From a virus: a stretch of 64,000 nt of DNA. Below are positions 34,190 to 64,000 of this stretch, one piece after another (the first letter of the stretch is position 1; every line of letters starts with the position of its first letter). The stretch spans positions 5,332-69,331 of IMG/VR virus record IMGVR_UViG_3300029812_000129. The stretch is one strand, 5' to 3'. The translations under genes and the position numbers were made by a program. The notes under the pieces were generated by a model. The model ran no database searches and was not told the DNA's origin. It saw only the letters and a list, made by a program, of their open reading frames with translations.

Positions 34190-34190
34190 A

Positions 34191-36766: not shown

Positions 36767-37055
36767 TAAAACAGTACCTAAAAAAACAATAATTAATAAA
36801 AATAATGGTATTTTTATAATTTGCGAATTGATTAAACAATGTTTTGAACTTTCAGAAAACCAGGTAAAACGTAAATGTTATGGAAATACTTTAAATAAAA
36901 ATTGTAAAGAAGACTGCATATATTATTTTGATAGAACTATTAATTGTGCGGGGAGAGTAGAAAATACAAGATGTGATAATTGTTTTATAAAGAATTTAAA
37001 CTTAAACCATTTATGTAAACATGCAAAAAGGTTTTATTTTAATAGGAAAGGATAA
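36759..37055 (+). CDS. Cys-rich hypothetical protein
   Basis: Coupled ORF. Confidence 0.45.
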   Translation: MDNKTVPKKTIINKNNGIFIICELIKQCFELSENQVKRKCYGNTLNKNCKEDCIYYFDRTINCAGRVENTRCDNCFIKNLNLNHLCKHAKRFYFNRKG

Positions 37056-37056
37056 A

Positions 37057-40134: not shown

Positions 40135-40326
40135 TCAGATGTCTTTTTGACGGTTCCGAGGGGATAGGTATACATAGTTTTCTGGATCTGGCGTTCCAAG
40201 TCGGAAAGGATAGAGCGGGCAAGAATAATCTGTGCATCCTCTGACTATTGTTGGCTGGCAATTGCAACATTCTAAACAAAAGTTTTTTACAGCGTCTTTT
40301 CTTGAAAGTTTCATTTTTTTAGCCAT
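40135..40326 (-). CDS. Small Cys-rich protein
   Basis: CLEC...C....CPLYPFR.G. Confidence 0.55.
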   Translation of the reverse strand: MAKKMKLSRKDAVKNFCLECCNCQPTIVRGCTDYSCPLYPFRLGTPDPENYVYLSPRNRQKDI

Positions 40327-41252: not shown

Positions 41253-41253
41253 T

Positions 41254-41451
41254 TTATCCCCTTTCTGGATTTCTCTGTATAAGAATTCTATTATATTTTT
41301 TATATATCTCATCACAATGTTTTAAATATTCTAATTTTTTATTATAATTGATTTTCCATAAAATTCTTTCAATTCTACATTTGGAACAATTACATGTTTT
41401 TTTCTTTACTGCTTGATAACCACCTGATGCATAAGGTTTTATCCAACTCAT
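41254..41451 (-). CDS. Hypothetical protein
   Basis: AAGGAG RBS. Confidence 0.45.
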   Translation of the reverse strand: MSWIKPYASGGYQAVKKKTCNCSKCRIERILWKINYNKKLEYLKHCDEIYKKYNRILIQRNPERG

Positions 41452-41470
41452 TATTTCTCCTTTAAATTAA

Positions 41471-41561
41471 TTGGGGGCTGTTGTGTTGGAAAGAATACTG
41501 GAGACATATTTGTATGGTCGAAGACAGTGGAGCAGGAATGGGGAACCCTGCCAGCCCCCAA
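41471..41561 (-). ncRNA. Structured intergenic element, copy 1 (GGGGGCTG...CAGCCCCC stem)
   Basis: Perfect 10-bp terminal stem; GC-rich; stem and RBS flank shared with 46704-46771. Confidence 0.45.
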
Positions 41562-41564
41562 ACC

Positions 41565-41759
41565 TTAACTACATATTTTTGCTACTATTAAAAATCCTAA
41601 TGCTAAACAGAAAAACACAACTGCTGGTAACCACAATGGGCTTAATACCCATATCCATGACCAAGTTATTTCTCCACATAGCTTTAGCACAATAAATACT
41701 ATTCCTAATAGTCCTGCAAAACAAATTCCCCCGCCACTTGATGCTCCCGAATTATCCAT
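41565..41759 (-). CDS. Small two-TM phage membrane protein
   Basis: LGIVFIVLKL.G.ITWSWIWVLSPLW. Confidence 0.65.
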   Translation of the reverse strand: MDNSGASSGGGICFAGLLGIVFIVLKLCGEITWSWIWVLSPLWLPAVVFFCLALGFLIVAKICS

Positions 41760-41944
41760 TACTTCCTCCTGTTCTCCTGTATTTTTAAAAACTCATTTAC
41801 CTTTTGTTGTTTTTCTTTATCGGATAAATCTTTAGCAATATTATATTTCCTGAATTTCTTTAACTTATTCATTAATCTGATTCCTCTATCTTTGTATGAT
41901 TTACTTTTTATTTTCATTCTACCTACTTTGCTTCCTTTTGACAT
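41759..41944 (-). CDS. Hypothetical basic protein
   Basis: Coupled ORF, GGAGG RBS. Confidence 0.45.
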   Translation of the reverse strand: MSKGSKVGRMKIKSKSYKDRGIRLMNKLKKFRKYNIAKDLSDKEKQQKVNEFLKIQENRRK

Positions 41945-42156
41945 TATACCTCCTTATCCAATTCTTTTAAAGTTTGTTTTACAATTTCTCTTGGGGTTAG
42001 CCATCTTTGCCCAACAGGCGGTATCTTATTATCAAAAATCCTTTTCTCTCCATAACCATATATTTTACTTCTATCATTTATTAAACAAAGAATTAAAGTT
42101 CTTTTTAATTCATTTATTATAAAATCTTTTTGTTCTAATAGTTTTGTTTTATTCAT
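41944..42156 (-). CDS. Hypothetical protein
   Basis: Coupled ORF. Confidence 0.45.
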   Translation of the reverse strand: MNKTKLLEQKDFIINELKRTLILCLINDRSKIYGYGEKRIFDNKIPPVGQRWLTPREIVKQTLKELDKEV

Positions 42157-42338
42157 CTATACTATCCTTACAACATTCATAGCCATATAAATCAAATTTT
42201 AATTTATATCTTGCCTTAAACATCTTTGTGAGAATAGAAGCCACTTCTTCCCCTGACCTTTCATATGCTACAAGCTCTAAATATTCTTTACCTATAAATT
42301 CTTTGTTTTTTATTAATTTATAAATCATTTGAAGCCTC

Positions 42339-43574
42339 CTATGCTTTTATAACTGCTAATGGTTTTAGCTTGACCAATATCCTTACTAAGTCTGCTTGAT
42401 TCTTCATTACGGTTTCAACATCTTTATATGCTCCTGGTGCTTCATCAAGTTCTTTTTCGCTACGGATACTATGGATAATACCTTTATCATTCAATAGTTT
42501 TATTTCTTTTTCCAAATCAAGATTTCTGCGAGCGTCATTCCTACCCATTTTTCTGCCAGCACCATGAGAACAAGACTTAAAGCTCTCTTTATCCCCCAGC
42601 CCTTCTACGATATAACTGGATGTGCCTTGTGAACCTGGCACGATCCCTGTCTCCCCTTTGTATGCTCTTGTAGCTCCTTTTCTGTGAACCATTACATTTT
42701 TACCAAAATGATTTTCCATAGCAGCATAATTATGAGCTATATTTATCATTTCGCCTGTTTCAAATATTTTAATATCTGTTCTGTCTTGCCCTATTTCACA
42801 GTTTATGAAGGCAGTTCCATTGCCAAAATAGTTAGCGAATATATTTATAATTCTATCCATCATTAATTTTCTATTAGCTAAAGCAAATTCTACGCAATAA
42901 TTCATTTCTCTCAAATATGCCTGTCCTTCTATACTATTTAGTGGTAAAAAAGCTAACTCCCATTTTTTGGGAACGCTACTAAACCATTTCTCATTTAATT
43001 CGACAGCAACTTTATTATAACGTTTTGCAACTTTTAATCCAAGATTTCTGCTTCCCGAATGTATCATAATCCAGATATGATTATCGTCACCTTTTTGTAT
43101 CTCAATAAAGTGATTGCCTCCGCCAAGAGTCCCCAATTGTTTAAGTGCAGATCTATATTCTGTTCTAATTGTTGGCATCCAGTCTAAAAATATTTTTTTC
43201 ATATCTGGCATTAAATCTTCATTTTGTGCTACATTGTGATGCTTAAACCCAACAGGAATAGCTTTTCTAATCTCTGACATTATCTTTTTAAGAGTCTCTG
43301 TATCTATTTCTGTTAAAGATGTTTTAACGGCACACATCCCGCAAGCTATATCGCAACCTACGAGAGAGGGAACCACCACTCCTACCGTTGCCACAACTGA
43401 ACCTATGCTGGCACCAATACCCCAGTGTCCGTCTGGCATTAAAGCAACATGGCGGTGCAGGAACGGCAAAGAACTAACTCTTTTCATTTGTTCTAAACAT
43501 TGTTCTTCAATAAAATCTTTTTCAGAAAATACCTTCAAAGGAACTGTCATGTTTTCTTCTTTTATAATAAACAT
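42339..43574 (-). CDS. rtcB: RtcB RNA ligase (start MFII at 43574)
   Basis: PDGH.G, VG.DI.CGM, LGTLGGGNHFIE, HSGSR, HNY, HRKGAT, SHGAGR, DEAP.AYK. Confidence 0.95.
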   Translation of the reverse strand: MFIIKEENMTVPLKVFSEKDFIEEQCLEQMKRVSSLPFLHRHVALMPDGHWGIGASIGSVVATVGVVVPSLVGCDIACGMCAVKTSLTEIDTETLKKIMSEIRKAIPVGFKHHNVAQNEDLMPDMKKIFLDWMPTIRTEYRSALKQLGTLGGGNHFIEIQKGDDNHIWIMIHSGSRNLGLKVAKRYNKVAVELNEKWFSSVPKKWELAFLPLNSIEGQAYLREMNYCVEFALANRKLMMDRIINIFANYFGNGTAFINCEIGQDRTDIKIFETGEMINIAHNYAAMENHFGKNVMVHRKGATRAYKGETGIVPGSQGTSSYIVEGLGDKESFKSCSHGAGRKMGRNDARRNLDLEKEIKLLNDKGIIHSIRSEKELDEAPGAYKDVETVMKNQADLVRILVKLKPLAVIKA

Positions 43575-44254
43575 TAGCAACTCTCCCATTCAAATAGATT
43601 AATATAACTTCTGAAAAATTTTGTTAGCTTAGATTCAACTAAATCTAAATTATTAATAATATCTGTTTCCCAAAAACTAATAAATTCATAACCGAGATTT
43701 TCTAAAAATTCTTTTCTTTCTATATCTTTATTTCTTTTTAAAATATCTTTTTCTTCATTGTACTGATTTGGATTTTTATGCCAATAATCACCATAACATT
43801 CTACAATAAATTCATCGTGTATAAGAAAGTCAACGTTAAACCCGCCAATATAAACATTTGTTTTGTAGTCAATGTTTTTAACCATGCCAATGTCATCCAA
43901 TACTTTTTCAATAGTTTTTTCTATTTTTGTTCCCTTCTTTTTTTTGCCAGCTTTTATAAATTTATACAATCTTTTATGTTTTTCTTCTGTAGAAAGTTTA
44001 TCCCAATTCTTTTTTTTGGTTAATTCTCTTTTTTTAATAATTTCTTTAGTCGCAGGTATTTTATAATATGAGGATCTATTTCTTTTTTTGCTAGATTCTT
44101 TCATTTTTATTCTTGTTGATAAAGAATGATGTTTGCCGTAAAAATTATTCATCTTACCCTGCCTGCTACATTTTACACATAAACCGCTTGCACCTCTATC
44201 ATCTATTCCTATATTGCATTTTTTACATTTTCTATTTAATTTTCTATTTCTCAA
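43574..44254 (-). CDS. Free-standing endonuclease (Zn finger, NUMOD3, Vsr/DUF559-like domain)
   Basis: N.FYGKHHS..T..KM; T.IE, VDF, IVECYGDYWH, FWE.D. Confidence 0.75.
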   Translation of the reverse strand: MRNRKLNRKCKKCNIGIDDRGASGLCVKCSRQGKMNNFYGKHHSLSTRIKMKESSKKRNRSSYYKIPATKEIIKKRELTKKKNWDKLSTEEKHKRLYKFIKAGKKKKGTKIEKTIEKVLDDIGMVKNIDYKTNVYIGGFNVDFLIHDEFIVECYGDYWHKNPNQYNEEKDILKRNKDIERKEFLENLGYEFISFWETDIINNLDLVESKLTKFFRSYINLFEWESC

Positions 44255-44308
44255 TAATCTATTCCCTCCATATAATGTCTTTTATGACTGTAAAAACCTT
44301 TGCAAATA

Positions 44309-44608
44309 CTACTTCTCTCCTTTTATTTTCCTTTTGAGCTTTCCCATCTCTATAAAGTTACTTGCTTTTTTCCTAACCTGTTTACTGATATATCCTACTC
44401 TTGTAGTAGATACATCCATGAAATGACCTATTTCACTATAAGAATGTTTATCTTCCCTATATATTAAATAACATAATTCTTGGTCTGTCAAGGTATTAAT
44501 AAATGCTTGCCAATTTATTACAACTTGATACTTATTAATGGGATTATAATTATTACGTTTTTTACACATAGCATAAGCTTGTTCCCTGTTCATTCTATCA
44601 CCTTCCAA
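44309..44608 (-). CDS. Sigma-70 region-4-like HTH protein
   Basis: LTDQE...SYSEIG..M.VS..RV. Confidence 0.6.
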   Translation of the reverse strand: MEGDRMNREQAYAMCKKRNNYNPINKYQVVINWQAFINTLTDQELCYLIYREDKHSYSEIGHFMDVSTTRVGYISKQVRKKASNFIEMGKLKRKIKGEK

Positions 44609-45114
44609 TGTTTGTCGGCAGATTTATTTAAACGATCAATAATGTCTTTCTTGTCATAAATAGTTTTTGCACAAGGATTCCTGCCAAGCTTATCCCATCG
44701 AGCAAGCTGAACCAATTCTGGCAACCACGGATGATTTCCAAACCCTTTACATTTTTGCAGTTTTTTCATATCACCTAAAACATAGTGCCAAATCTTCATA
44801 TGGTTTTCAATTAACCATAAGGTTTTTAAGGTTACTTGTCCCTCCAATATTTCAACAGCTATTTTTGCGTGTCCCAACGGATTAACTTGTTTCCCGACAT
44901 CATGTAACATAGCAGCTAATATCAGATCCACATCATCACTTTCCCTAAAAGCCCATCTCATTGTTTGTACCAAATGGCTAAATACGTCTTTTTCTGGATG
45001 GTATTCTGGTAATTGTTTAAGACATTTGCAACCTTCCATCTTTTCAAATAGCGGATTCATGTTTTTTTCATCAAATACCATTGTAATGGCTCTCCTCAAA
45101 TAAATAATTGTCAA
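44590..45114 (-). CDS. HD-domain phosphohydrolase (like the C-terminus of CCA-adding enzymes)
   Basis: Q.PEYHPE.DV..H, AAMLHDVGK, GHA, NHM, D..GR. Confidence 0.8.
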   Translation of the reverse strand: MTIIYLRRAITMVFDEKNMNPLFEKMEGCKCLKQLPEYHPEKDVFSHLVQTMRWAFRESDDVDLILAAMLHDVGKQVNPLGHAKIAVEILEGQVTLKTLWLIENHMKIWHYVLGDMKKLQKCKGFGNHPWLPELVQLARWDKLGRNPCAKTIYDKKDIIDRLNKSADKHWKVIE

Positions 45115-46063
45115 CTTTTTGAATTATAAAATTATCCCAAAATTTTCTATCAACTTTTTTAGGTAGCTTGCTTTGTAAAGATAGTTCCTCAACTTCATAC
45201 ATTAGCTCTTCGAGTTTTGGAGCAACAACTGTTGAGTAATCGAACTCCCCTTGTTTAACTGCCCTTAAATATTCTGCTTCTTTTAGTGGAAAAGTAATTG
45301 TATTTTGAGTTAATATTTCTTTGGTTTGATAAGCAGCCCTTAAGGCATGAGAGATAGCTTTCCAGTCTATCCCCTTGTTTTCTGCTGCCATCTTTGCTCT
45401 TGCCCCATAATTTTTATAGAAGTTATTAACTACTTCATATAAATAACTCAAACTTGTAGTTTCCCCAACTTTCCTTCCACAGACTTCATACATTCTTATT
45501 CCGTTTACATCTGGTTCTTGTTTAAAAATATGTTCTCCTGTTGGTAATACGTCCCATAATTCTTTTAATTTAATATCTCTATCATATGCATAAAAGCCAT
45601 CAATAAAATTTAATACTCTTTTAGCATCATTTAATCTGCTCCCCTTAATTCCATATTTGCTCGCTTGTTTCCTGGCATATCCGACAAAAGCATTTAAGCT
45701 CTTGGTGTAAAATCTATGGCGTTCAGATACAATCTTTTCCCATATGTTAGAAGATTCTAAAACCATATTTTCGGGAGTATGTAGCATATCTAATGCAACT
45801 GTCTGACCCTGACAAGCTAATTCAATAAAATAATGTAGAGAATAGATCTCGTAATCAATATCTTCTGATGTATTTTTGGAAAGACTATTCCCTGTTGTTT
45901 GATGATAGCTTTTAGGAATTTTCCCTAAAAATATTTGTTCTTTAGTGGGCATAAAGATACCTTTAAAATCTTTATCCGATAATTCTGTATTTGTACCATA
46001 TAAATGGCTTCCAAAAATTAGCTTAACAATTGTTAGCATCCCATCATCGCCTTTAATCCGCAA
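45071..46063 (-). CDS. Pol-beta superfamily nucleotidyltransferase (RlaP/YcgL-like)
   Basis: GSHLYGTNT..SD.D.KGIF, GYA..Q, K...HALR, L..VKQG. Confidence 0.8.
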   Translation of the reverse strand: MRIKGDDGMLTIVKLIFGSHLYGTNTELSDKDFKGIFMPTKEQIFLGKIPKSYHQTTGNSLSKNTSEDIDYEIYSLHYFIELACQGQTVALDMLHTPENMVLESSNIWEKIVSERHRFYTKSLNAFVGYARKQASKYGIKGSRLNDAKRVLNFIDGFYAYDRDIKLKELWDVLPTGEHIFKQEPDVNGIRMYEVCGRKVGETTSLSYLYEVVNNFYKNYGARAKMAAENKGIDWKAISHALRAAYQTKEILTQNTITFPLKEAEYLRAVKQGEFDYSTVVAPKLEELMYEVEELSLQSKLPKKVDRKFWDNFIIQKVDNYLFEESHYNGI

Positions 46064-52788: not shown

Positions 52789-53051
52789 TTTATATCCTTC
52801 CCTTTTTAATTGTTTTTGTAGTTCCTTGTATTGTTTTAGATCCTGTTGGGTATTCTCCTAATTTGATAGCTTGTTAGTAAATGGCTATAATCCGGTTTGG
52901 TGGAAAGTCGATCCCTTCTTGCTTGCCTATCAAGGTTTTGAGTATATCTCCTAAAACAAAATTGGGATATACGCATGAAAAACCTTCCCAAAATAAAATA
53001 CAATTATTTCACCTCCCTTTTTTTATATTTTTCTCACCTCCTATACTTTTA

Positions 53052-53079
53052 ATTATACTCTTATTATATTTTTTTGCAA
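53052..53079 (-). promoter_or_regulatory. Promoter
   Basis: TTGCAA-16 nt-TATAAT. Confidence 0.5.
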
Positions 53080-53311
53080 GTCTTTATACCTATATATTAC
53101 CGATATTTTTAAAATTCTTTGCTTTTAGTCAAAACATATCCTGTGAATAGCGATCCGGACGTGATATTCTTATTTTAGAAGGTTAAAATGGAATTTATAC
53201 GTTTACACAATTATATATTTCTATTTAAGAATAATTATCAAAAAAGAAATTAGAGGAAAAAAGATTAAATGCTAGAACTGAAAAACATAAAATAAAGCTG
53301 GAGGTTTCAAA

Positions 53312-53563
53312 ATGTTAATAAAAGAAGTTTCAAAAGATTATATCAAGTTTGAGAAAATATTTGATTGTGACAAACCTATTATTAAACATAGTAAAATAAA
53401 ATTAGATTGTAGCCGTTATTTTGTTATAGATGACGGCTATTTTACTATTACTAGAGAAGAATATTCTGATAGATTAAAAGCTAAAGATAAAAAGGATAAA
53501 ATGGTTAAAAAGCTAATAGATAAATTTGGTTGTAAATGGGTAGAAAATCACAACCTACTATAA
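53312..53563 (+). CDS. Hypothetical early protein
   Basis: GGAGG RBS. Confidence 0.55.
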   Translation: MLIKEVSKDYIKFEKIFDCDKPIIKHSKIKLDCSRYFVIDDGYFTITREEYSDRLKAKDKKDKMVKKLIDKFGCKWVENHNLL

Positions 53564-53658
53564 AATAGAATAGAAAATAAATTATCCATTGCATAAAATA
53601 GTTGTAGTGGATAGATATAGTAGAACAGGAGACTATAAAATAAAGGTGGTGATAAAAA

Positions 53659-53931
53659 ATGTCAAAGCTAGATGAAAAAATAGAAAAAAGAATAGATGAA
53701 TTGATGGAGTATATAGAAGAATTACGTTTAGCAGATTTAAAGAGTAAAGCAGTTATAGAAAAACTAAAAGCAGATTTAACTGGTGGCTATTTTTACGAAG
53801 ATAATTGCCGAGTAAATTTTTCAGAAGACCATGGATGGTATATAAAAAGATATATTAATAGCAAGATAAAGACAGAAAGTATTTCAGAAGATATTGCAAA
53901 TAAACTAGTTAGAAATTCCTTTATGAATTAG
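53659..53931 (+). CDS. Hypothetical early protein
   Basis: GGTGGTG RBS. Confidence 0.5.
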   Translation: MSKLDEKIEKRIDELMEYIEELRLADLKSKAVIEKLKADLTGGYFYEDNCRVNFSEDHGWYIKRYINSKIKTESISEDIANKLVRNSFMN

Positions 53932-53963
53932 AAGTAAAATATATTAGATGGAGGTGAATAAAA

Positions 53964-54368
53964 ATGACTAAAGAAGAAGCATTGGCTAAACACTTAGAAG
54001 AAGATATAGATATGATAATAGAATCTAAATACGATGAAGATGAGTTCGAAGTATACGAACAAGAGTATTTAGTATTAACAGATGAGGAAGCTGATGAAAG
54101 AGCTAAAGAGTATATATTAGAATCTGTATGGTCTTTTAATGCCTGGTTTTTAGTAGCTCATATGCCAGAAGGAGTAGACGAAGATGCGATTAAGCTTATA
54201 CAAGAAAAATGTTGCGAAGATGCTAATAATACATTTTTAGCAATGATAGAAGATAAAGACTATTTTGTAGAAGATGCAATATCTACTGATGGTAGAGGAC
54301 ACTTTTTATCTTCGTATGATGGAAGTGAGTATGAAGTAGAAGGATATTATATTTACAGGACAAATTAA
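53964..54368 (+). CDS. Highly acidic protein, possible DNA mimic
   Basis: Very D/E-rich; DGRGHFLSSYDG.E...YYIYR end. Confidence 0.5.
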   Translation: MTKEEALAKHLEEDIDMIIESKYDEDEFEVYEQEYLVLTDEEADERAKEYILESVWSFNAWFLVAHMPEGVDEDAIKLIQEKCCEDANNTFLAMIEDKDYFVEDAISTDGRGHFLSSYDGSEYEVEGYYIYRTN

Positions 54369-54536
54369 AAAGTAAGGGAAGCAATAGAAATGAAAACTAA
54401 TTTGTTAGAATGGGGAAATGGGCATAAATGGTATATTAAAAGTTATGAGCAAGCAGAGCTTTATGCTTATATAAAAGCTTTTTATTTTAGTGATGTAAGG
54501 CTAAATGGGATATTAATAAAAAGAAGTTTTTAATGA

Positions 54537-54743
54537 TTGGAGGTGTTAAGTAAAGTGTTATTAAAAAATAAAATTATAAAAGAAATTAAAGAAGATAGAA
54601 ATAATTATTTTGGGTATAGTCATTTTGATGAAAGTAATATGGTTGACTATACTTTGATGAGTTGTGCAATACAGGATTTAATAGATGTTTATGGTATCAA
54701 CGAAGTTGAGGCAGCAGATATAGTAACTGCTTTAATACATTAG
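54537..54743 (+). CDS. Hypothetical protein
   Basis: GGAGG RBS nearby. Confidence 0.4.
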   Translation: MEVLSKVLLKNKIIKEIKEDRNNYFGYSHFDESNMVDYTLMSCAIQDLIDVYGINEVEAADIVTALIH

Positions 54744-54818
54744 ATTGGAGGTAGTAAGAAGTGTCTAAATACTATATAGGATTATTAAAAGGGAATAGAC
54801 AAAAATTGGAGGATAGAA

Positions 54819-55007
54819 GTGAAAAGATTTCTACGTATTGACAGAGAAGAATTTAATATAAGAGCTAAAAACGATAGACGTAAAAGAGTTAATCGTTTGG
54901 TAGTAGTTTATACAGATGGAGTATACAAATATGTTAAAGGTTTTGAGTTTCCAAAAACGGATAGTTGTGATGAAATGAATGCTAAGATCCCACAGATTAT
55001 AAATTAG
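54819..55007 (+). CDS. Hypothetical protein
   Basis: GGAGG RBS. Confidence 0.45.
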   Translation: MKRFLRIDREEFNIRAKNDRRKRVNRLVVVYTDGVYKYVKGFEFPKTDSCDEMNAKIPQIIN

Positions 55008-55024
55008 AGAGGGGATGAGAATAA

Positions 55025-55261
55025 ATGTATGCAGGCACAATTAAGCGTGAGAAGATAACTGATAAAACAATAATAGAATTATCTGTTGAAATTAGTCCCA
55101 AATGTAAAGATAGGCTATATGTAAGAGTAGTTACATGCGGGGCTACTGCTGAAGAAGAAGATAGAAATAACTTTTTATCAAAATATTTGTATTCAAGAAA
55201 TTTGGCTGAAGATTATATTAAAGAGCTAAAGATAAAGTTCTTTAAAGAGAAGTTGCGTTAA
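55025..55261 (+). CDS. Hypothetical protein
   Basis: GAGG RBS. Confidence 0.45.
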   Translation: MYAGTIKREKITDKTIIELSVEISPKCKDRLYVRVVTCGATAEEEDRNNFLSKYLYSRNLAEDYIKELKIKFFKEKLR

Positions 55262-55420
55262 ATGTATGTTCCAACAAGTAAAAAAGAGATTATAAAAAGA
55301 ATACAAAGATATGAGAAGTGCTTTTATAATAGAAACTATACTATAAAGGAGATTAAGAAAGAAAGAAGTAGAACAGAACTTGTTGGATGGTTGTCAAAGT
55401 TTAATTAAGGAGGTGCAGAT

Positions 55421-55678
55421 ATGATAGTTATGCAGGTAAAAGAATTTAATGTAAACGCAACGTCCAGATGGCAAAAAGCAGTAGATAGATATAGCAATAG
55501 AGAATGTGATTATTTCCCATTATTTGGTTTTTATGTTTTCCAAACAAAGAAAAAAGAGTTAAGGCAAAGAGGATATGTTGCAACAGGGATAGATGAAGGG
55601 AAAGATAAACATTGTTTTGGTATGAATAGAGAAAAAGCGATAAAAAAATATAAGGGGGTGAAAAAAGATGTCATGTGA
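55421..55678 (+). CDS. Hypothetical protein
   Basis: AGGAGGT RBS. Confidence 0.5.
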   Translation: MIVMQVKEFNVNATSRWQKAVDRYSNRECDYFPLFGFYVFQTKKKELRQRGYVATGIDEGKDKHCFGMNREKAIKKYKGVKKDVM

Positions 55679-55871
55679 GAAGTGCAAAGAGTATCAAAAA
55701 ACAGATTTGACTGCATATTATAGGTGGAAAAACGCTAATGTAGAAATGAGAGGCTGTGATAGACACTTAAAAGAAATATTTAGAGTTTTAGGTAAAGCTC
55801 AATCTACAGATAGGTATGAGCGTCAAGAAAAAGAGTTGGATAGAAGGATAGAAGAATACCAAAAAAGATAG
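55668..55871 (+). CDS. Small Cys/His protein
   Basis: CEKC...C..H. Confidence 0.45.
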   Translation: MSCEKCKEYQKTDLTAYYRWKNANVEMRGCDRHLKEIFRVLGKAQSTDRYERQEKELDRRIEEYQKR

Positions 55872-55890
55872 TATAGAAGGAGGTGGCAAG

Positions 55891-56214
55891 ATGCAAAAGA
55901 TATGTGCATACGAATACAAAGATTTAGATGAAGATGTAAAAGATGGGGTTGAGCAAGATGCTTTATGCGAAATAGTAGAAGATAGTCTATTGTTCCTATC
56001 TATCGACTTAGAAAAAGAGAATATAACAGAAGAAGAATACTATAAAGAACTTGGTTGCTCAAAATACTATGCAGAAACTACTTCTTGGTTTATTCCTGCA
56101 CGTTACTATGAAAAACATAAAGAAGAAATAGATAAAGAAGTAGAAATAAGGGTAAATTCTATGCTATATACTAAGTATGGTGTAGTAATAGGACACAAAG
56201 AGGAGGAGAAATAG
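55891..56214 (+). CDS. Acidic hypothetical protein
   Basis: AGGAGGT RBS; Y.Y.DL.E.VK start. Confidence 0.5.
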   Translation: MQKICAYEYKDLDEDVKDGVEQDALCEIVEDSLLFLSIDLEKENITEEEYYKELGCSKYYAETTSWFIPARYYEKHKEEIDKEVEIRVNSMLYTKYGVVIGHKEEEK

Positions 56215-56450
56215 AAAATGATTAGAAAAGAAATAGATATAAAGATAAGAGATGAAAAGTATGTTGCTAAAGTAATAGAAAAGAATAAAAAAGACGTTAG
56301 ATTACATATTCCGGCACTTGGTAGTTTGGTTATAACATTACCAATAAACAACGTAGAGAATAAAAGAGAGATTGTGCTTGTATGATTACTACAGAGCTAC
56401 TAGTTGTTTTAAATGGTTAGTAGCTCTATGGCAATTATATAATAAAGGAG

Positions 56451-56771
56451 GTGAGAAAGATGGTTAATGTTTACAATGAGAACAGCGATGTCATCGCACG
56501 TGTAAAGTACAACCAGAATTTAGATAACTGGGACGGGAATAACTGGACATGTGGCGGTGGTCTTGGTATCCACAAGGGCATTACTCAACTTGCAGATGGA
56601 CAATATGTTTTAATTCGTGGATCGCAGTGGGAGGGAATACAGAGTACAGCAGAAGTTATCTCTACTAATAGAGCTATACAAGAGATTTTAAGAAGTGATA
56701 ACGCTGACGAGCTATTAAAGAAGTATGGGCTAACAAAAGAAGCAGACAAAATGTTAGTAAAGGAAGCATAA
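56451..56771 (+). CDS. Hypothetical protein
   Basis: LD.WDG.NW..GG.G.H.G, GSQW.G; likely start MVNV. Confidence 0.55.
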   Translation: MRKMVNVYNENSDVIARVKYNQNLDNWDGNNWTCGGGLGIHKGITQLADGQYVLIRGSQWEGIQSTAEVISTNRAIQEILRSDNADELLKKYGLTKEADKMLVKEA

Positions 56772-56786
56772 ACAATAGACCTGGGC

Positions 56787-57077
56787 ATGTCTTTAAACTG
56801 CCCAACTAAAATGAAAGGAGTGACTATGTTTGATGTGAGATTACCAAGAGAATTTAAAAAGAACTATTTAACACAACAAAATGCAATGAAGGTTGCAGGG
56901 ATTGCGTCAAGCAATCTATACACTAATATTGCACAACAAGCTACAAAGCAAGCGTTGGCAAAGGTTATAGAAAAAGACTCTAATAGAAGTTTTACGGACT
57001 GCATAAACTATGTCAAAAATATATCTGAAAAGAAATTAGAAGAATTTGTTAAAAAAGCACGTAAATTTGTGAGATAA
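56787..57077 (+). CDS. Hypothetical protein (likely start MFDV)
   Basis: AAGGAG RBS before internal ATG. Confidence 0.5.
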   Translation: MSLNCPTKMKGVTMFDVRLPREFKKNYLTQQNAMKVAGIASSNLYTNIAQQATKQALAKVIEKDSNRSFTDCINYVKNISEKKLEEFVKKARKFVR

Positions 57078-57091
57078 AGGAGAGGATAAGA

Positions 57092-57535
57092 ATGACTGTT
57101 CAGGAATTAGCAGAAGAGTATTATAAGTATTTTGAGTATAAAGAAAGGGATAATGGAGATAGGTTTGTATGCTTAAAGGATGATAGACCAGAAGAATTAA
57201 GAGATTTAGTTTATAAAGCCCACGATAAGATGATGCCAGATGATTATAAATATCAGTATATTCATGATGCAATAGAAATGATTGCAGACGCAGATGATGA
57301 TAGGTTGGAAGAACCAGAAATAGAACCAGATGTTTATGATTCAGATCTATTTGATTGGTTGTCTTCTAACTTAACCAGACAATACTATGTAGATGAAGCA
57401 GTAAATGACATTGGTCATGGCAAAAGTATAACAGATGACATTATGTATGGTCAAGTAGAAGAGAAAAGAGAAGTATATTTTAGTGTATTAGAATCGTTAA
57501 GAGATATAACAGAGGAGATGGAAGAAGATGAATAA
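57092..57535 (+). CDS. Ocr (T7 gp0.3)-like anti-restriction DNA mimic
   Basis: Very acidic; IHDAIEMIAD...PDVYDSDLFDW resembles Ocr LHDAIHMAAD...PHYYADIF. Confidence 0.55.
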   Translation: MTVQELAEEYYKYFEYKERDNGDRFVCLKDDRPEELRDLVYKAHDKMMPDDYKYQYIHDAIEMIADADDDRLEEPEIEPDVYDSDLFDWLSSNLTRQYYVDEAVNDIGHGKSITDDIMYGQVEEKREVYFSVLESLRDITEEMEEDE

Positions 57536-57848
57536 GCAAGAGAGAGAGGAGGTAGAAACCGTTAGGCTTATATTACACGAAATGTTTGGAGATAGACCAG
57601 AGCATGTAGAGATTTGCTCTTGTGTTACCGATAAACTTTATAGGCTATCCCATACGAAAGATACTATGTTACAACAGTTAGTAGATGACATTGTTGGTAG
57701 AAGAGAGATAGCAAAGCGGAGTAAGGATGAAATGGATGATGGGTATAAAACTTTTTTCAATGGTGTTATTTTAGGTTACACAACATCTATTGAAGTAATA
57801 AAAAGGGAGATGGAATGGAATGATAGAGTTAAAAGAAATGAAAAATGA
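57528..57848 (+). CDS. Hypothetical protein
   Basis: Coupled ORF. Confidence 0.45.
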   Translation: MNKQEREEVETVRLILHEMFGDRPEHVEICSCVTDKLYRLSHTKDTMLQQLVDDIVGRREIAKRSKDEMDDGYKTFFNGVILGYTTSIEVIKREMEWNDRVKRNEK

Positions 57849-58125
57849 TTACGTAATAGACATATTAGTTGCAAACAATACTCGTAAAAAATTAGTAGAA
57901 AAAGTAGAACGGGAACTACATTATGCAATTGTACGTATAGGTTTTGATGAAAAAAATAAGTACACCTTAGTATCTTTTTCAAAAGATAAAGAAATATATG
58001 GTGAACAAGATACAACCTATGGTATCGCTAAGCGTTGTACCTATAGTAAAAAAGAAGATGAACATAAAGATTGTGTTGGAATAACAATAGCACTTTTAAG
58101 AGCTATGGGATTATCGGAGGATTAG
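57820..58125 (+). CDS. Hypothetical protein
   Basis: GIAKR....D......G..IAL.RA motif common in phage proteins. Confidence 0.5.
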   Translation: MIELKEMKNDYVIDILVANNTRKKLVEKVERELHYAIVRIGFDEKNKYTLVSFSKDKEIYGEQDTTYGIAKRCTYSKKEDEHKDCVGITIALLRAMGLSED

Positions 58126-58316
58126 ATATGGATAAAGAGGATATAAAAGATGTTAATATTTTTGAAGATTATGCTTATGAATTAACAGAGGTAGACGCAA
58201 TAAGGCTTTTTGTAGCAAAATTTAGTTCATCTTATACTTTGCAAATGGTTTTAGAGATGCCCTACAACGAACTAGTAGGCGTTATGTGGCAGACCGCAGA
58301 AGAAATTAGGAGGTGA
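58071..58316 (+). CDS. Hypothetical protein (likely start MDKE)
   Basis: GGAGG RBS. Confidence 0.45.
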   Translation: MCWNNNSTFKSYGIIGGLDMDKEDIKDVNIFEDYAYELTEVDAIRLFVAKFSSSYTLQMVLEMPYNELVGVMWQTAEEIRR

Positions 58317-58321
58317 AATAA

Positions 58322-58528
58322 ATGAGATTATATAGAGTTAAGATAAGGGGTGCAGTTAACCACAAAGTTTCCTATGCAGTAGCAAGCGATTCTGGCGAAG
58401 CATATAGAAAAGTACGGGATTTTCTTGATGATGAGGACTGGGGCGGTGTCGCAGGAAGAGATTTATTATCGGTTGAGCTTATAGCCGAAGAGCATTACAC
58501 ACTTTTAGATACTTTACTATTTTTATAA
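58322..58528 (+). CDS. Hypothetical protein
   Basis: AGGAGGT RBS. Confidence 0.5.
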   Translation: MRLYRVKIRGAVNHKVSYAVASDSGEAYRKVRDFLDDEDWGGVAGRDLLSVELIAEEHYTLLDTLLFL

Positions 58529-58537
58529 GGAGGACAA

Positions 58538-58795
58538 ATGGTATCAGTAGAGAAAATGGACGATGCAATAGAAGCTATAACATGTTTATGTGAAAATGAT
58601 GTTGTGAGTAGTTCTTTGTGTGTAGATAAAGACATAGAATTCTATAGAATATATAGCCATGCATATTGGGACGCAATAATAGCTTTTGATCCCAACACAC
58701 AAGAAATAGTAGCATTTAGAAGTCATGTAATAACTTTAACAGAAGCAGAAGATATTTTAAAAGCGGAGGGGGTGATAAAAGATGTGTCTGTATAA
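58538..58795 (+). CDS. Hypothetical protein
   Basis: AGGAGG RBS. Confidence 0.5.
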   Translation: MVSVEKMDDAIEAITCLCENDVVSSSLCVDKDIEFYRIYSHAYWDAIIAFDPNTQEIVAFRSHVITLTEAEDILKAEGVIKDVSV

Positions 58796-59201
58796 ACCAA
58801 TAGACAAAGAACCATGCAAGAAAGGGTATAAGGTATTCTACAGAAAAGAAGAAGAAATATCTATGTATGAAAAGGATGTAATCTTCCCAACGGATACATG
58901 GATAGACGAAGTGGGGTATAGACCATCTTGGTTTCATGGTGAAAGCCTATATTATACTACATCTTACGAAGCGTATACAGATTCAGCGACATATATTACG
59001 TATCCTGTAGGTTGGCATGTATTCCATACTTTAGATGCAGCTATGGAATGGATAACAAATGACCAGCAGATAATAAGAGAAGTAGAAGTCAAAGAACCAG
59101 TAGCGGTAGGAGAACAAATATACGCTGGTAGGTGTTGGGATGTAACAGTATGTAAAAAAATAAAAATATTAAAGGAGCAAACATGCGAAAAAAAACACTA
59201 A
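58782..59201 (+). CDS. Hypothetical protein
   Basis: MCL...GYKVF...Y..GWH.F. Confidence 0.55.
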   Translation: MCLYKPIDKEPCKKGYKVFYRKEEEISMYEKDVIFPTDTWIDEVGYRPSWFHGESLYYTTSYEAYTDSATYITYPVGWHVFHTLDAAMEWITNDQQIIREVEVKEPVAVGEQIYAGRCWDVTVCKKIKILKEQTCEKKH

Positions 59202-59494
59202 TAGTAACAAGACATGCAGGAGCGGTAAAATGGTTAAAGAGTAAAGGGATAAAAGGAATAAATGTTTATAACTTACAAGAAGAAGATGTAGAAAAAGGAG
59301 ATAAGATATATGGAGTATTGCCTTTAACACTTGTAGCAAAAGCTATAGAAAAAGGTGCAGAAGTAACGCTGCTGATGTTGCCAAGCATAGCATACGAAGA
59401 TAGAGGTAAAGAGCTGACTCCAGAAGAGATGGATGAAGCGGGAGCCTATATGGTAAGAGTGGTTTATTTGGAACTGGAAAGGATGAGCATATAA
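59183..59494 (+). CDS. csx16: Csx16-like (CRISPR type III-associated, putative cOA ring nuclease)
   Basis: VTRHAGAVKWL, GD...GVLP..L.A....KGA, RGKELT.EE....GA match the Csx16 pattern across the full 103 aa. Confidence 0.8.
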   Translation: MRKKTLIVTRHAGAVKWLKSKGIKGINVYNLQEEDVEKGDKIYGVLPLTLVAKAIEKGAEVTLLMLPSIAYEDRGKELTPEEMDEAGAYMVRVVYLELERMSI

Positions 59495-59856
59495 TGAATA
59501 GAGATATAGAACTATTAGAAGAAAGTATTGAGCATTGGGAAAATGATATATGGCCGTTGTTAGGTGAAGCAACTAAAATAATAAATAACGTGTTAAGGTT
59601 TAGCGTTTCAATTAGAGGAGAATTGGTAGATATTCCTTGCGGATCAACCCATTGTCCTTTATGCGAAGAATATCTTTGTGATTTTTGTGCGGGTTGCCCA
59701 ATAGATGCTATGGACTTTACGTGTACAATAGCCGATTCACCATATGACATGTTTAGGGAATCAGATACTTTAAGAAAAGCAAGAATAAGATGTAAGAAAA
59801 TGATTGGAACAATGGAAGTAATATTAGAGAAATTAAAAATAAAGGAGGCGATATAA
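59494..59856 (+). CDS. Cys-rich paralog family member 2
   Basis: LLEESIEHWE..IPC...CPLC..Y..C.GCPI. Confidence 0.6.
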   Translation: MNRDIELLEESIEHWENDIWPLLGEATKIINNVLRFSVSIRGELVDIPCGSTHCPLCEEYLCDFCAGCPIDAMDFTCTIADSPYDMFRESDTLRKARIRCKKMIGTMEVILEKLKIKEAI

Positions 59857-59858
59857 AA

Positions 59859-60386
59859 ATGGTACTAACCGATAGAAATAAAGAGTTATTAAAAGAATCT
59901 ATCAAACATTGGAAAGAAGATATTATCCCACTATTAAAAAAAGGCAACAAATTCAGAAGACCATGTGTTTTAATTGATGGTAAAGAAGTAAATTTACCAT
60001 GCTATAGGGAAGAATGCCCGCTATGCAGAGAATACCTTGGGTATTTTAGGTGGGATAATACGTGTAGCGAATGTCCAATATCTATGGCTGGATTTGGTTG
60101 CGATGATGGCTATAGTCCTTGGAAAAACTTTATAAATTCCAGCACTATCCGTGAAGCTAGAGTAAGAGCAAAGATAATGATACAGATGATGGAAAGCATA
60201 TTAGATAAGACAAAAGAAAAGAAATATATTGTATCGGTAGCAAAAGAGCAATGGGGTTTTGTAGAGATAGAAGCAAAAAACATAGGGGAAGCAAGACATA
60301 TGGCACGTGAAGCCGTTATAGAAGGACAGGCTGTATGGGAAGATAACAAAATATCAGTAGACACAATAAGAGAGGAGAGAGAATAA
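59859..60386 (+). CDS. Cys-rich paralog family member 3, with C-terminal extension
   Basis: LLKESIKHWK..LPC...CPLC..Y...C.ECPI. Confidence 0.6.
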   Translation: MVLTDRNKELLKESIKHWKEDIIPLLKKGNKFRRPCVLIDGKEVNLPCYREECPLCREYLGYFRWDNTCSECPISMAGFGCDDGYSPWKNFINSSTIREARVRAKIMIQMMESILDKTKEKKYIVSVAKEQWGFVEIEAKNIGEARHMAREAVIEGQAVWEDNKISVDTIREERE

Positions 60387-60536
60387 TGGCAAAAAACCAA
60401 GGTTGGTGGAGATTAGAACTTACGGACAACAGGCCAGAGGAATTAAGCGATTACGATAGGGAGCATATTGCAGAATGTATATTGGGAGGGAATACGCAGG
60501 GCAATATTGTTGAAAACGAGGAATGGGAGGATCTAA

Positions 60537-61148
60537 ATGTACAATAAAAACAATTTAGAAATATATAAGGTAGCTTCAAAAGATGAGACAAAAGTTATTT
60601 TAGGGGGAGTTTATTTCACAGGTGATTCTACAGTTGCAACAGATAGCAGTTTATTAATGGAGGTATCAGTTCCTAAGCAAAACATAGAAGATTTTCCGAT
60701 AGTGGGAGAAGAACTTGTAGATGTACATGAACCATTTATATTAGAAGCAAAAGCAGTCAGAGACTTAATAAAAGATATACCTAAAAATTCTTCATTACCT
60801 ATTTTAGAAAATATAGTTGTTGCCAAAAATAAGGATAAAGGAGTAGCTTCTTTAGTAACAACAGATTTATCCATTACTAACGTACACAAGGTCAGAAAGA
60901 TAATAGGTGAATATCCTAAGCATAAACAATTGTTCCCAGAAGAAGAGCCTGCAATAAAACTTAGATTAGACCCACAACTTTTAAAGAAAGTAGCAGAGCT
61001 ATATTGTAAAACATTGGAAGCAGGCAGTTCTATAGAAATATTTGTTCATAAAAGTATAAATAAGCCAATAGAATTTAGAGCTTTTAATACAGAAACAAAA
61101 CAAGAAATAAAAGCTTTATTAATGCAGAAGAGTGGTAATAATGCTTAG
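60537..61148 (+). CDS. Beta sliding-clamp-like protein (truncated, about two domains)
   Basis: AS.DET...L.GV, VATDS..L, G.YP....L.P, ALLM. Confidence 0.65.
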   Translation: MYNKNNLEIYKVASKDETKVILGGVYFTGDSTVATDSSLLMEVSVPKQNIEDFPIVGEELVDVHEPFILEAKAVRDLIKDIPKNSSLPILENIVVAKNKDKGVASLVTTDLSITNVHKVRKIIGEYPKHKQLFPEEEPAIKLRLDPQLLKKVAELYCKTLEAGSSIEIFVHKSINKPIEFRAFNTETKQEIKALLMQKSGNNA

Positions 61149-61419
61149 AAAAGATATGTTAAGAAGATTGGGGGAAGGGGAAGACCCATTAGAACTCTCT
61201 ATAGAAAAATGGAAAGATATTATAGAAGGGAAAGAAGATGATACAGATAATTGTGCTTTGTGTAAAACAAATATATGTAGCAATTGTATAGCCGATTCAG
61301 ATGGTTGGTGTTGTGGCGGGTATTATGATGCTTATGTGATTGGTTGCGAAAGTGGTACATACCATAAAGAATTAGCTATAGATGTATATGATTATTTATG
61401 TAGCCTAAGAAAGAAATAA
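61132..61419 (+). CDS. Cys-rich paralog family member 4 (divergent)
   Basis: LELSIEKWKDI...CALC...CSNC. Confidence 0.5.
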   Translation: MVIMLRKDMLRRLGEGEDPLELSIEKWKDIIEGKEDDTDNCALCKTNICSNCIADSDGWCCGGYYDAYVIGCESGTYHKELAIDVYDYLCSLRKK

Positions 61420-61451
61420 TAATGATTTATTTAAACTAAATAGGAGGGTAA

Positions 61452-62225
61452 ATGGACTATGTAAATAACTTTCTTAAAGAAATACTATTATCAGGATATA
61501 GTCATCACACTATAACTGCTTATCGGAATGACCTTAAAATAATAGAACAGAAAGCTATTAACACAATTACCAAAGAAGATGTTATAAGTTTTATACCAAT
61601 GGATTTAGCTCCGAGAACAAGGGCGAGAAGGCTAAATGCTTTTAAATCATTCTTTTCATGGGCAAAAGAGAACAATATAGTAAAAAGTAATCCCACTAAA
61701 AACATAAAAGCTATTAAAATCCCTTATAGCGAGGTGGTGATACCATGTAAAGATTATAAATCATTGATAAACAATATTGCCAAAGAAAAACACAGGCTTA
61801 TGTTAACCCTTTTACGAGAGACAGGTATGAGAGCAGGGGAGTTGGCTAAATTAAAGAAAGACTCTTTAATAGAAGCTGGATTATTGATAGACGGTAAGGG
61901 CAGTAAACAAAGGGTTATACCGTTGTTAGAAGCTACCCGTAATGAGCTTGAAGACTATTTGGAAAACATGGATCAAATATATATGTTCCCCAACAGAAAA
62001 GGGGAGAGAATAAGTAACACTACTATATATAGAGTTGCAAAAAGATATTTAGGGATATACCCACATCTTTTAAGACATTTATTTATTACAAGTCTTATAG
62101 AAAACAATGTAGATATATTTACAGCTAAGACGTTGGCTGGACACAGCAACTCAAGCACAACAGAAGTATACACACATTTATCCAAAAAGCATTTAGCAAA
62201 ATCTATAGAAAAGACTTTTGAATAA
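61452..62225 (+). CDS. Tyrosine recombinase, XerC/D-like
   Basis: TGMR..EL, GKG.KQR, HLLRH, LAGH, T.VY (R-K-H-R-H-Y); no arm-binding domain. Confidence 0.9.
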   Translation: MDYVNNFLKEILLSGYSHHTITAYRNDLKIIEQKAINTITKEDVISFIPMDLAPRTRARRLNAFKSFFSWAKENNIVKSNPTKNIKAIKIPYSEVVIPCKDYKSLINNIAKEKHRLMLTLLRETGMRAGELAKLKKDSLIEAGLLIDGKGSKQRVIPLLEATRNELEDYLENMDQIYMFPNRKGERISNTTIYRVAKRYLGIYPHLLRHLFITSLIENNVDIFTAKTLAGHSNSSTTEVYTHLSKKHLAKSIEKTFE

Positions 62226-63283
62226 TGTTCTTTGATAATGATGTTAACATAAACGTTAACATAAATGCAGAAGATAATAGTTGTGTTCCAACAGCTTCTA
62301 ATGCGGGTATCCCAACAGGAAATATATTAGCTCCTGATGGGTTTAAGGAATTTATTGGACAAGAAGATGCTGTAAAAGCTATACAAACAGAACTTGGATT
62401 AGCCAAAGAATACAACAGACCTTTCCCGCACACACTAATGTTGGGTTATCCGGGGCTAGGCAAATCAACACTTGTTAGTTTAATAGCTAAAAGTCTTTGC
62501 ACTAAAACATACTCTTTTACAGCACCAATAAAAGAAAAGATGTGGCGAGAGACAATGACAGAAATGGATGATGATAATTATAATGGATTAACAACACCAC
62601 AGATAATATATTTAGATGAAATTCACTTACAAGAAGGTAAACAAGAATTTATGTATACATGTTTACAAGATAATATTATGTACAATGACGGAAGTCCATA
62701 CACGGTATCACCGTTTACTTTAATGGGAGCCACAACAGATGAAGGGCAACTGTCAGCACCTTTTTTACAAAGATTTGAGTTACAAATATTTTTACATCCT
62801 TACTCAATAAGAGACCTCTCTGTTATCGCTTTACAATCATTAAATAAATTAAAAACATCTTATAATAAAGATATTTCTATAGATGAAGATATAGTAATAA
62901 GAATAGCAAATATGTCATGGGGCACACCAAGACTTGTAAATAAGTATTTAAAGCAAGCCTATAAAATAGCATTATCTCAAAAGGAAGATGTGATAACAAC
63001 AGAAACCTTTAATGAAATACTAAAAAGATTTTGCTTAACTCCAGAAGGTATAAATAAAAAAGAGTTAACATATTTAGATATATTATATGATACATTTGAA
63101 TGTAAAGCAAAAGGATTAGCTACTGTTGCGTCAGTTATGCAAGAGAACTCTAAAACAGTAATGAAGTATATAGAACCACATCTTATAAGAATGAAGTTAG
63201 TAATTCCTACACCAAGAGGTAGGAAAATAACCGAGAAAGGAGTAGAATATATAGAGAAATATAAAACAATGATAGAAAATTAA
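62225..63283 (+). CDS. ruvB: RuvB Holliday junction branch-migration ATPase
   Basis: FIGQ, G.PGLGKSTL, DEIH, FTL.GATT..G.LS.P...RF, GTPR, EP.L, TPRGR. Confidence 0.9.
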   Translation: MFFDNDVNINVNINAEDNSCVPTASNAGIPTGNILAPDGFKEFIGQEDAVKAIQTELGLAKEYNRPFPHTLMLGYPGLGKSTLVSLIAKSLCTKTYSFTAPIKEKMWRETMTEMDDDNYNGLTTPQIIYLDEIHLQEGKQEFMYTCLQDNIMYNDGSPYTVSPFTLMGATTDEGQLSAPFLQRFELQIFLHPYSIRDLSVIALQSLNKLKTSYNKDISIDEDIVIRIANMSWGTPRLVNKYLKQAYKIALSQKEDVITTETFNEILKRFCLTPEGINKKELTYLDILYDTFECKAKGLATVASVMQENSKTVMKYIEPHLIRMKLVIPTPRGRKITEKGVEYIEKYKTMIEN

Positions 63284-63676: not shown

Positions 63677-64000
63677 ATGCTTAGTTTAGAGAATAGAAAG
63701 AAGTTAGCAAGGTTAGGTGTTTTTAATCTAAATAGAAGAATTTTAGAGTGCACCTGCCCAAAATGGTTAAAGAATAATTGTAATCGAGACACCTGTAAGA
63801 AATTGGAATGTAAAAGCTTTAAAAAGGATAATTGTACCTCTAAATGTAAATATTTAGCTATAGACCCTACACTTGAAGACTTAGAAGAAGAAATAAGATT
63901 AAAGATAGATGAGTGGGAAGAAGGGGAATATCAAATTGACTACGGTCTTGATAAAAAAACGAATACAAAATGTTACAGTATTTTTCTGTATAAAATAAAT
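63677..64000 (+). CDS. Hypothetical protein (partial; paralog of 39064-39453; not in ORF track)
   Basis: AGGAG RBS; MLSLENRKKLARLGVF...CKYLAIDPT. Confidence 0.55.
   Translation, partial: MLSLENRKKLARLGVFNLNRRILECTCPKWLKNNCNRDTCKKLECKSFKKDNCTSKCKYLAIDPTLEDLEEEIRLKIDEWEEGEYQIDYGLDKKTNTKCYSIFLYKIN

Follow-up and report, generated by a model that had tools for sequence, protein, structure and literature searches.

A stand-alone Csx16, a candidate ring-nuclease anti-CRISPR, in the genome of a tailed bacteriophage

Type III CRISPR immunity depends on cyclic oligoadenylate (cOA) signalling, and, among the ring nucleases of viruses, an anti-CRISPR role is to our knowledge best documented for AcrIII-1 (DUF1874). 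Here we describe a gene of another ring-nuclease family, csx16, carried by a 64,000-nucleotide stretch of viral DNA (hereafter the window), which corresponds to bases 5332-69331 of the 69,331-base IMG/VR virus record IMGVR_UViG_3300029812_000129, a record flagged as having direct terminal repeats. The gene had been picked out in an earlier reading of the window made from its letters alone (the original prediction), as a stand-alone phage Csx16 with a candidate role against type III CRISPR.

Both the Csx16 family with its activity and its presence in phages have been published before. Hoikkala et al. 2025 (PMC12409355) report that purified Csx16, in the form of one cellular representative, is a ring nuclease specific for cyclic tetra-adenylate (cA4): a 100-fold excess of cA4 was fully converted to linear products in 1 h, whereas the cyclic tri- and hexa-adenylates (cA3 and cA6) are described there as not degraded, even at 10-fold higher enzyme. 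This puts on firm ground the link between Csx16 and cyclic oligoadenylate degradation on which the original prediction had drawn. The same report models Csx16 as a dimer in which conserved residues cluster at the presumed cOA site, counts AcrIII-1 in 36, Csx20 in 4 and Csx16 in 2 of 28,114 phage genomes, and regards the ring nucleases of viruses as anti-CRISPRs; virus-encoded ring nucleases likewise act as anti-CRISPRs according to PMC13148439 and PMC12830947. The separate route to type III anti-CRISPR activity that the original prediction had put forward is thus not new, having been anticipated in PMC12409355. We found no paper, judged mainly at the level of abstracts, that tests a virus-borne Csx16.

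The gene and its ribosome-binding region lie as follows.

59183-59494, + strand: csx16, a stand-alone single-domain gene of 103 aa with an ATG start (open reading frame (ORF) map and hidden Markov model (HMM) matches)
59165-59182, + strand: ribosome-binding region of csx16, with AAAGGAG 6 nt before the ATG, within the end of the upstream ORF

The analysis confirms csx16 as an intact, full-length, genuine stand-alone Csx16 on a phage. When the 103-aa protein was compared with Pfam, PF09652 (Cas_VVA1548) matched with an E-value of 2.3e-22 and 79.4 bits (the gathering score being 25), and the alignment pairs residues 7-90 with positions 2-85 of the 91-position profile and so spans the whole domain. 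The NCBIfam model TIGR02620 ('CRISPR-associated protein Csx16') scored 49.8 bits against a cut-off of 46.35, and three PADLOC Csx16 models matched (E 1.3e-22 for PDLC01635, 1.2e-19 and 1.1e-18); a search of PHROGs with the protein gave no match. The profile match that the original prediction had proposed as a check was thereby obtained, and its recognition of full-length Csx16 motifs was also correct, in that the translation of the ORF at exactly 59183-59494 carries all three, namely VTRHAGAVKWL, GDKIYGVLPLTLVA and RGKELTPEEMDEAGA. In an alignment of 45 single-domain Csx16 members, R10 is invariant, conservation is 90% or higher at H11, G13, W17, G44, L46, P47, R74, L78 and G87, and the window Csx16 keeps all 10 of these 10 columns. 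Since the main text of PMC12409355 names no Csx16 catalytic residues, the retention of all conserved residues is the strongest claim to be made for the active site. A Shine-Dalgarno core was found upstream of 59 of the 89 putative starts in the window, as compared with 7.7% of random positions.

None of the 95 ORFs scanned in the record (89 in the window and 6 in the remaining 5.3 kb) matched a cas family, the Cas10 palm domain PF22335 was absent from the record in a search that was positive in 6 of 14 control genomes, and no CRISPR-like repeat or array was found in the genome, all of which bears out the earlier observation that the window holds no cas genes or array. Ring-nuclease families had no match among the other window ORFs. 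The type III CRISPR-Cas locus that is the usual context of cellular Csx16 is not found here, and it is this lack of a type III locus beside csx16 that makes the copy a candidate anti-CRISPR, a trait of its context and not of the protein. The sole short-period direct repeat in the genome is a TAATCC run at 34601-34678 (about 11 perfect units, then degenerate), which lies inside a gene for a DnaD-like loader and could either encode a repeat of the Asn-Pro type or represent origin DNA with iteron-like units.

An AlphaFold2 model of the window Csx16, built on our own 45-sequence alignment, had a mean predicted local distance difference test score (pLDDT) of 96.1 and a predicted template modelling (TM) score of 0.86. 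It is a small alpha/beta protein with strands at residues 5-8, 26-28, 41-44, 60-65 and 89-93 and four helices, and agrees with the topology given for Csx16 in PMC12409355, which is five-stranded alpha/beta (derived Rossmann, CARF-like). Prediction with two copies yielded a score of 0.50 in each of 3 runs, whereas the best of 3 controls scored 0.00; contacts agreed between the runs to at least 94%, and the partner pLDDT was at least 80. The dimer mark was reached by 20 of 30 one-chain-pair structures and by 1 of 23 single-chain structures, figures that apply only approximately because our own alignment was used. In the model the interface is symmetric and formed via the C-terminal strand (residues 89-101), and these predictions support a Csx16 homodimer. 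A sequence search found no solved Csx16 structure, and Foldseek returned no match at E <= 0.001 in the PDB or in BFVD, the top PDB row being the Crn1 ring nuclease Sis0455 at an E-value of 0.025, which is not significant.

When 1.84 billion cluster representatives were searched exhaustively with HMMER, 694 relatives passed E <= 0.001 and 96 of these also passed E <= 1e-10; identity to the window Csx16 nowhere exceeded 52%. The closest relative overall, found by a word-based search, is an anonymous protein (P0002) of the same length and 73% identity that is present on 2 contigs, and a metagenome scan added at least 3 loci at 43-46% identity. Two of 50,697 phage records hold a Csx16 relative, those of Methanobacterium virus Drs3 (45.8%) and PhiF3 (34%), and the isolated viruses with csx16 in this set infect archaea only. 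Locus scans made use of an 11-sequence alignment, the 45-sequence alignment being too diverse, and a pattern scan of IMG/VR confirmed 15 Csx16 loci (28-49% identity, G+C 0.40-0.73) out of 42 candidate stretches. These 15 loci have only Csx16 and one weak HNH match in common with the window phage, 9 further loci showed no synteny with any window ORF besides Csx16, and PF22335 was found in 0 of 16 virus records with Csx16, the window phage included. Because the IMG/VR loci share so little and lack the Cas10 palm domain, we conclude that csx16 is a stand-alone accessory gene found repeatedly on phage backbones that are not related to one another.

Cellular relatives numbered 181 after confirmation, and the figures given here rest on the best 80 of these. 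The top relatives belong to Methanoregula and other Methanomicrobiales metagenome-assembled genomes, at 38-43% identity, and the remainder are mostly Pseudomonadota. Contexts were read from ORFs of at least 220 aa, compared with PADLOC, in 11 of the best 80 loci: Cas10 lies within 10 kb of csx16 in 5 of the 11, other type III or CARF parts occur in 3 more, including a CARF-HEPN-Csx16 fusion (561 aa) and a Csx16-CARF-TM fusion (437 aa), and the remaining 3 comprise one locus with Cas1 only and both Methanoregula loci, which have no cas genes. A large HD-CE protein (PF24391, about 600 aa) follows directly after the methanogen csx16 at two loci (L018, 3782-6015; L019, 7163-9383), and on a metagenome contig at 46% identity (L100, 6892-8955) Csx16 is fused to an HD-CE (PF24391) protein directly downstream of Cmr2, Cmr3, two RAMPs and a Card1-type effector. 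This HD-CE architecture, which occurs in the subclade closest to the phage copy, may thus join Csx16 to an HD effector. The 150 best cluster representatives also include 9 proteins of about 205-230 aa that carry two Csx16 domains per chain (P0006, P0008, P0018, P0027, P0030, P0033, P0035, P0037 and P0118) and can be described as single-chain 'dimers', and 40 more with N- or C-terminal extensions of at least 60 aa, which fall into many unrelated groups; extension segments number 46 in all, two of them from two-domain proteins.

A phylogenetic tree was built from 96 rows and 90 columns, leaving out L010 (match too short) as well as L013, L015 and L016 (no match at threshold). The tree is unrooted and poorly resolved, with 10 of 93 inner branches well supported. 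The window Csx16, on a long branch (0.86), pairs with P0002 with a Shimodaira-Hasegawa-like approximate likelihood ratio test (SH-aLRT) value of 99, and the pair groups weakly (SH-aLRT 82) with the copies from Drs3, PhiF3 and Methanobacteriota; this wider grouping may be a composition artefact, since exactly those low-G+C rows were flagged for deviant composition. Viral rows are clustered in the tree (5 changes, where shuffling gave a mean of 13.3 and none of 500 shuffles reached so low a number), and 13 of 14 fall outside a 75-row, mostly proteobacterial clade. The comparison of viral with CRISPR-linked copies that the original prediction had suggested thus separates most virus-borne copies from the big clade; the tree, being unrooted, gives no direction of transfer.

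Base composition speaks to the gene's recent past. The G+C content of csx16 is 0.369 and its G+C at third codon positions (GC3) is 0.269, against a GC3 of 0.240 +/- 0.048 for the other + strand genes, deviations of about 1.3 (G+C) and about 0.6 (GC3) SD. Since csx16 matches the phage's other + strand genes in this way, it did not enter the phage recently from the G+C-rich organisms in which the nearest known copies occur. Nor was a donor found for the host off-switch that the phage had been held to have captured: cellular copies reach at most 43% identity among the best 80 of the 181, the closest relative, at 73%, is anonymous, and the G+C of csx16 itself is that of the phage.

The presence of a stand-alone Csx16 on a phage, together with the cA4-specific ring-nuclease activity demonstrated for the family (PMC12409355), makes an anti-type III role the best reading of the gene. 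By analogy with the tested cellular enzyme, the phage Csx16 is probably a ring nuclease that removes cA4, thereby disarming type III effectors and acting as an anti-CRISPR. A Csx16 homodimer would bind cA4 on the face formed by conserved loops, two of which follow strand 1 (T-R-H-x-G-A) and strand 3 (G-x-L-P) while the third carries R-G-x-E-L, and would cut it to linear di-adenylate. In an infected cell in which a type III complex recognises phage RNA, Csx16 would remove the second messenger before the effectors start, so that Csm6/Csx1, Can or Card1-type effectors would be kept off. That the phage copy is active, that it is expressed in time and that the host has a type III system signalling through cA4 are points that we infer. 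The core of the original prediction thus survives as the best reading, whereas its suggestions of a separate route, of host capture and of an early anti-defence region are overstated or unsupported.

The protein might instead act as a sponge, binding cA4 or another cyclic oligonucleotide tightly with little or no turnover, which would still be an anti-defence activity. PMC12409355 raises the same possibility for the related Csx15, later found to be very slow in turnover (PMC13148439), and the phage copy is divergent, at no more than 52% identity to every cluster representative; the tested Csx16, however, fully degraded its 100-fold excess of cA4 in 1 h (PMC12409355), and the phage copy retains all family-conserved residues, R10 and H11 among them, so that we consider a sponge improbable. 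A different target, whether cA3 or cA6 or a CARF/SAVED-based non-CRISPR defence such as the cyclic oligonucleotide-based antiphage signalling system (CBASS), would make the protein anti-defence without being specifically anti-type III. Against this stand the cA4 specificity of the only tested Csx16, maintained at 10-fold higher enzyme (PMC12409355), and the fact that the scanned cellular relatives have type III genes, rather than CBASS, as their neighbours. Ring-nuclease families do vary in specificity, with Crn4 cleaving several cOA and cA3 being shared with CBASS (PMC12830947), and the phage copy has one close relative only on its long branch (0.86), but on balance we regard another target, too, as having little chance of being correct.

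The gene proposed to remove cA4 is embedded in a run of small ORFs, of which the following parts are relevant here.

52881-63283, + strand: co-directional packed run of small ORFs, about 10 kb, holding csx16 (ORF map)
58782-59201, + strand: upstream ORF of 139 aa, whose last 19 nt overlap the start of csx16; matches neither Pfam nor PHROGs
59494-59856, + strand: downstream ORF of 120 aa, Cys-rich, its ATG sharing a base with the csx16 stop (TAATG); no family match
61452-62225, + strand: tyrosine recombinase of the phage-integrase family, 257 aa (PF00589, E 1.8e-26), 2 kb downstream of csx16

Because of these start/stop overlaps, the upstream ORF, csx16 and the downstream ORF are packed as one translational unit, and csx16 is predicted to be well set for expression by its Shine-Dalgarno site and its overlaps with both neighbours. 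A divergent intergenic region marks where the run begins, and its far end is made up of sliding-clamp-like, tyrosine-recombinase and RuvB/clamp-loader-like genes. The original prediction had placed csx16 in an early anti-defence region, a label that amounts to a guess from the size and layout of the small ORFs: none of the 20 ORFs neighbouring csx16 matched Pfam, none matched a named anti-defence family, and 2 of the 20 matched PHROGs (one family of unknown function and one weak processivity-factor match). The best + strand promoter-like site lies at 52863-52891 and there is no terminator-like site from 53440 to 62702; promoter-like sites (65 against 60.7 in shuffled controls) and terminator-like sites (4 against 4.6) were not in excess and gave no sign of early timing.

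Several of the neighbouring ORFs are of interest in their own right. As leads only, the upstream ORF has an ESM Atlas feature score of 0.96 to unnamed virus-only clusters (30 hits, without Pfam), and its predicted structure compares with DUF7666 clusters at a TM score of 0.54-0.57. Just downstream of csx16 lie three Cys-rich paralogues on the + strand (59494-59856, 59859-60386 and 61132-61419; 120, 175 and 95 aa), the second and third being 48% and 30% identical to the first; the trio has a common N-terminal S-I-x-x-W motif and six invariant cysteines but no Pfam or PHROG match, and its look-alikes in the ESM Atlas are unnamed virus clusters at a score of at most 0.84, again at the level of a lead. 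We also considered whether the neighbouring ORFs correspond to domains that are fused to Csx16 elsewhere, and rejected this at the sequence level: phmmer against 153 proteins gave none at E <= 1, and blastp against the 46 extension segments gave nothing below E 0.18.

The recombinase in the same gene run raises the question of a temperate role, in which Csx16 would weaken the type III reaction of the host against transcripts of the prophage (tolerance of lysogeny or of self-targeting) and would not serve to break immunity at lytic entry. This is quite improbable, since the recombinase is short (257 aa), adjoins RuvB-like and replication genes and may resolve dimers, and neither a repressor nor an attachment site was identified in the phage; the biochemical mechanism would in any case be identical to removal of cA4 as proposed above. 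That csx16 is a mere passenger, non-functional or unexpressed, is very improbable, for although CheckV rates the record as 50% complete, the frame is intact, full length, preceded by a Shine-Dalgarno site and in possession of every conserved residue, a 73%-identical homologue of the same length (P0002) occurs on other contigs, and the base composition is phage-adapted (the GC3 values given above).

We return to removal of cA4 as the preferred function and turn to the virus that carries the gene, whose main landmarks in the window are these.

10800-13787: tape measure (Pfam/PHROGs)
22442-23377: capsid-like protein (Pfam/PHROGs)
26422-27933: portal (Pfam/PHROGs)
28477-30114: large terminase (Pfam/PHROGs)
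34110-34967: DnaD-like loader (Pfam/PHROGs)
34967-36766: primase/helicase (Pfam/PHROGs)
37021-38004: RecA, bacterial-type (Pfam/PHROGs)
40326-46063, - strand: RNA-repair cluster (Pfam)

The 5.3 kb of the record beyond the window add an endolysin with Amidase_2 and PG_binding_1 domains and a GIY-YIG endonuclease. Given the terminase, portal, capsid-like, tape-measure, primase/helicase and endolysin genes and the IMG/VR virus record, the virus is a tailed bacteriophage. An exact 141-base repeat is common to both ends of the record (window 63860-64000 and L097 1-141), and because this is the pattern of a circular assembly, we probably have the full genome, of about 69.2 kb, despite the CheckV completeness estimate of 50%. 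With a genome G+C of 33.5% and with a peptidoglycan amidase, a bacterial RecA and a DnaD-like loader pointing to bacteria, we infer a bacterial, low-G+C and Shine-Dalgarno-using host. The host cannot be read from relatives, since those among phages are absent or distant: blastn of the 5.3 kb around csx16 against the 50,697 phage records gave no match, the terminase has two distant relatives only (25-27%), and the primase/helicase reaches 45% at best among phage relatives. Two further features of the gene content stand apart from csx16. Beside the tail genes, at 553-5346 on the - strand, is a block with three genes of glycosyltransferase families and three of methyltransferase families; such cargo is unusual in a phage of this size, and the targets of modification may be the virion, the surface of the host or DNA. 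Four homing-endonuclease-type genes (14747-15712, 25330-25842, 33647-34189 and L097 1207-1932; RRXRR, NUMOD3, HNH, and GIY-YIG with NUMOD3) are scattered amid tail, head, replication and lysis genes.

The RNA-repair cluster comprises an RNA ligase (PF09414), RtcB (E 9e-110), a DUF559/REase_MTES_1575-like protein, an HD-domain protein and an RlaP nucleotidyltransferase. RtcB seals 2',3'-cyclic-phosphate and 5'-OH ends, as left by HEPN RNases. One might therefore imagine a two-layer answer to type III immunity, in which Csx16 would remove cA4 and the RNA-repair cluster would reseal the breaks made by Csm6/Csx1-type HEPN RNases, although a functional link between csx16 and the cluster is speculation. 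As a separate matter, the Csx16 family could have started on mobile elements, since the virus-borne copies fall mostly outside the large CRISPR-linked clade; a mobile-element start followed by recruitment by type III loci has been proposed for AcrIII-1 and Crn2. Taken jointly, a two-layer answer and a family born on mobile elements and recruited by type III loci make up a rather unlikely reading.

If phage-borne Csx16 blocks type III immunity by removing cA4, as we favour, another ring-nuclease family would become a proven anti-CRISPR, the ring-nuclease tactic would extend from archaeal viruses to the phage of a low-G+C bacterium, and a compact cA4 off-switch of 103 aa would be available for type III-based tools. 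Since the idea is already in print, the value of the present copy is that of one more diverse, intact candidate and not of a new principle. What is added here is an intact, minimal 103-aa form, in a probably complete genome of a phage of a low-G+C bacterium, far from the sampled cellular donors, together with an RNA-repair module in the same genome, for which a part in repairing what cA4-activated RNases have cut is conceivable but speculative.

Set beside the described systems, the window Csx16 is distinct from AcrIII-1/Crn2 (DUF1874) by sequence membership, as only PF09652 matched the protein at E <= 1, and the original prediction was right to treat AcrIII-1 as a different family. Nor does it match Crn1 or Csx20, the CARF-type stand-alone ring nucleases, at the sequence level, and the structural scores are not significant. 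With the proteins of Drs3 (Drs3_00003) and PhiF3 (ORF30) it has in common that all are stand-alone virus-borne Csx16 of about 103 aa. Drs3 and PhiF3, however, infect methanogenic archaea, PhiF3 carrying a pseudomurein endoisopeptidase, whereas the window phage carries an Amidase_2 and PG_binding_1 endolysin, a bacterial-type RecA and a DnaD-like protein and has no gene besides Csx16 in common with them. Compared with cellular Csx16 (PF09652/TIGR02620), the phage copy is at most 46% identical to any of known context and is found without cas genes, whereas cellular copies adjoin Cas10/Cmr/Csm or are fused to CARF-HEPN, CARF-TM or HD-CE; the two nevertheless agree in HMM family, in their conserved residues, in a length of about 100 aa, in the predicted five-stranded fold and in the predicted dimer.
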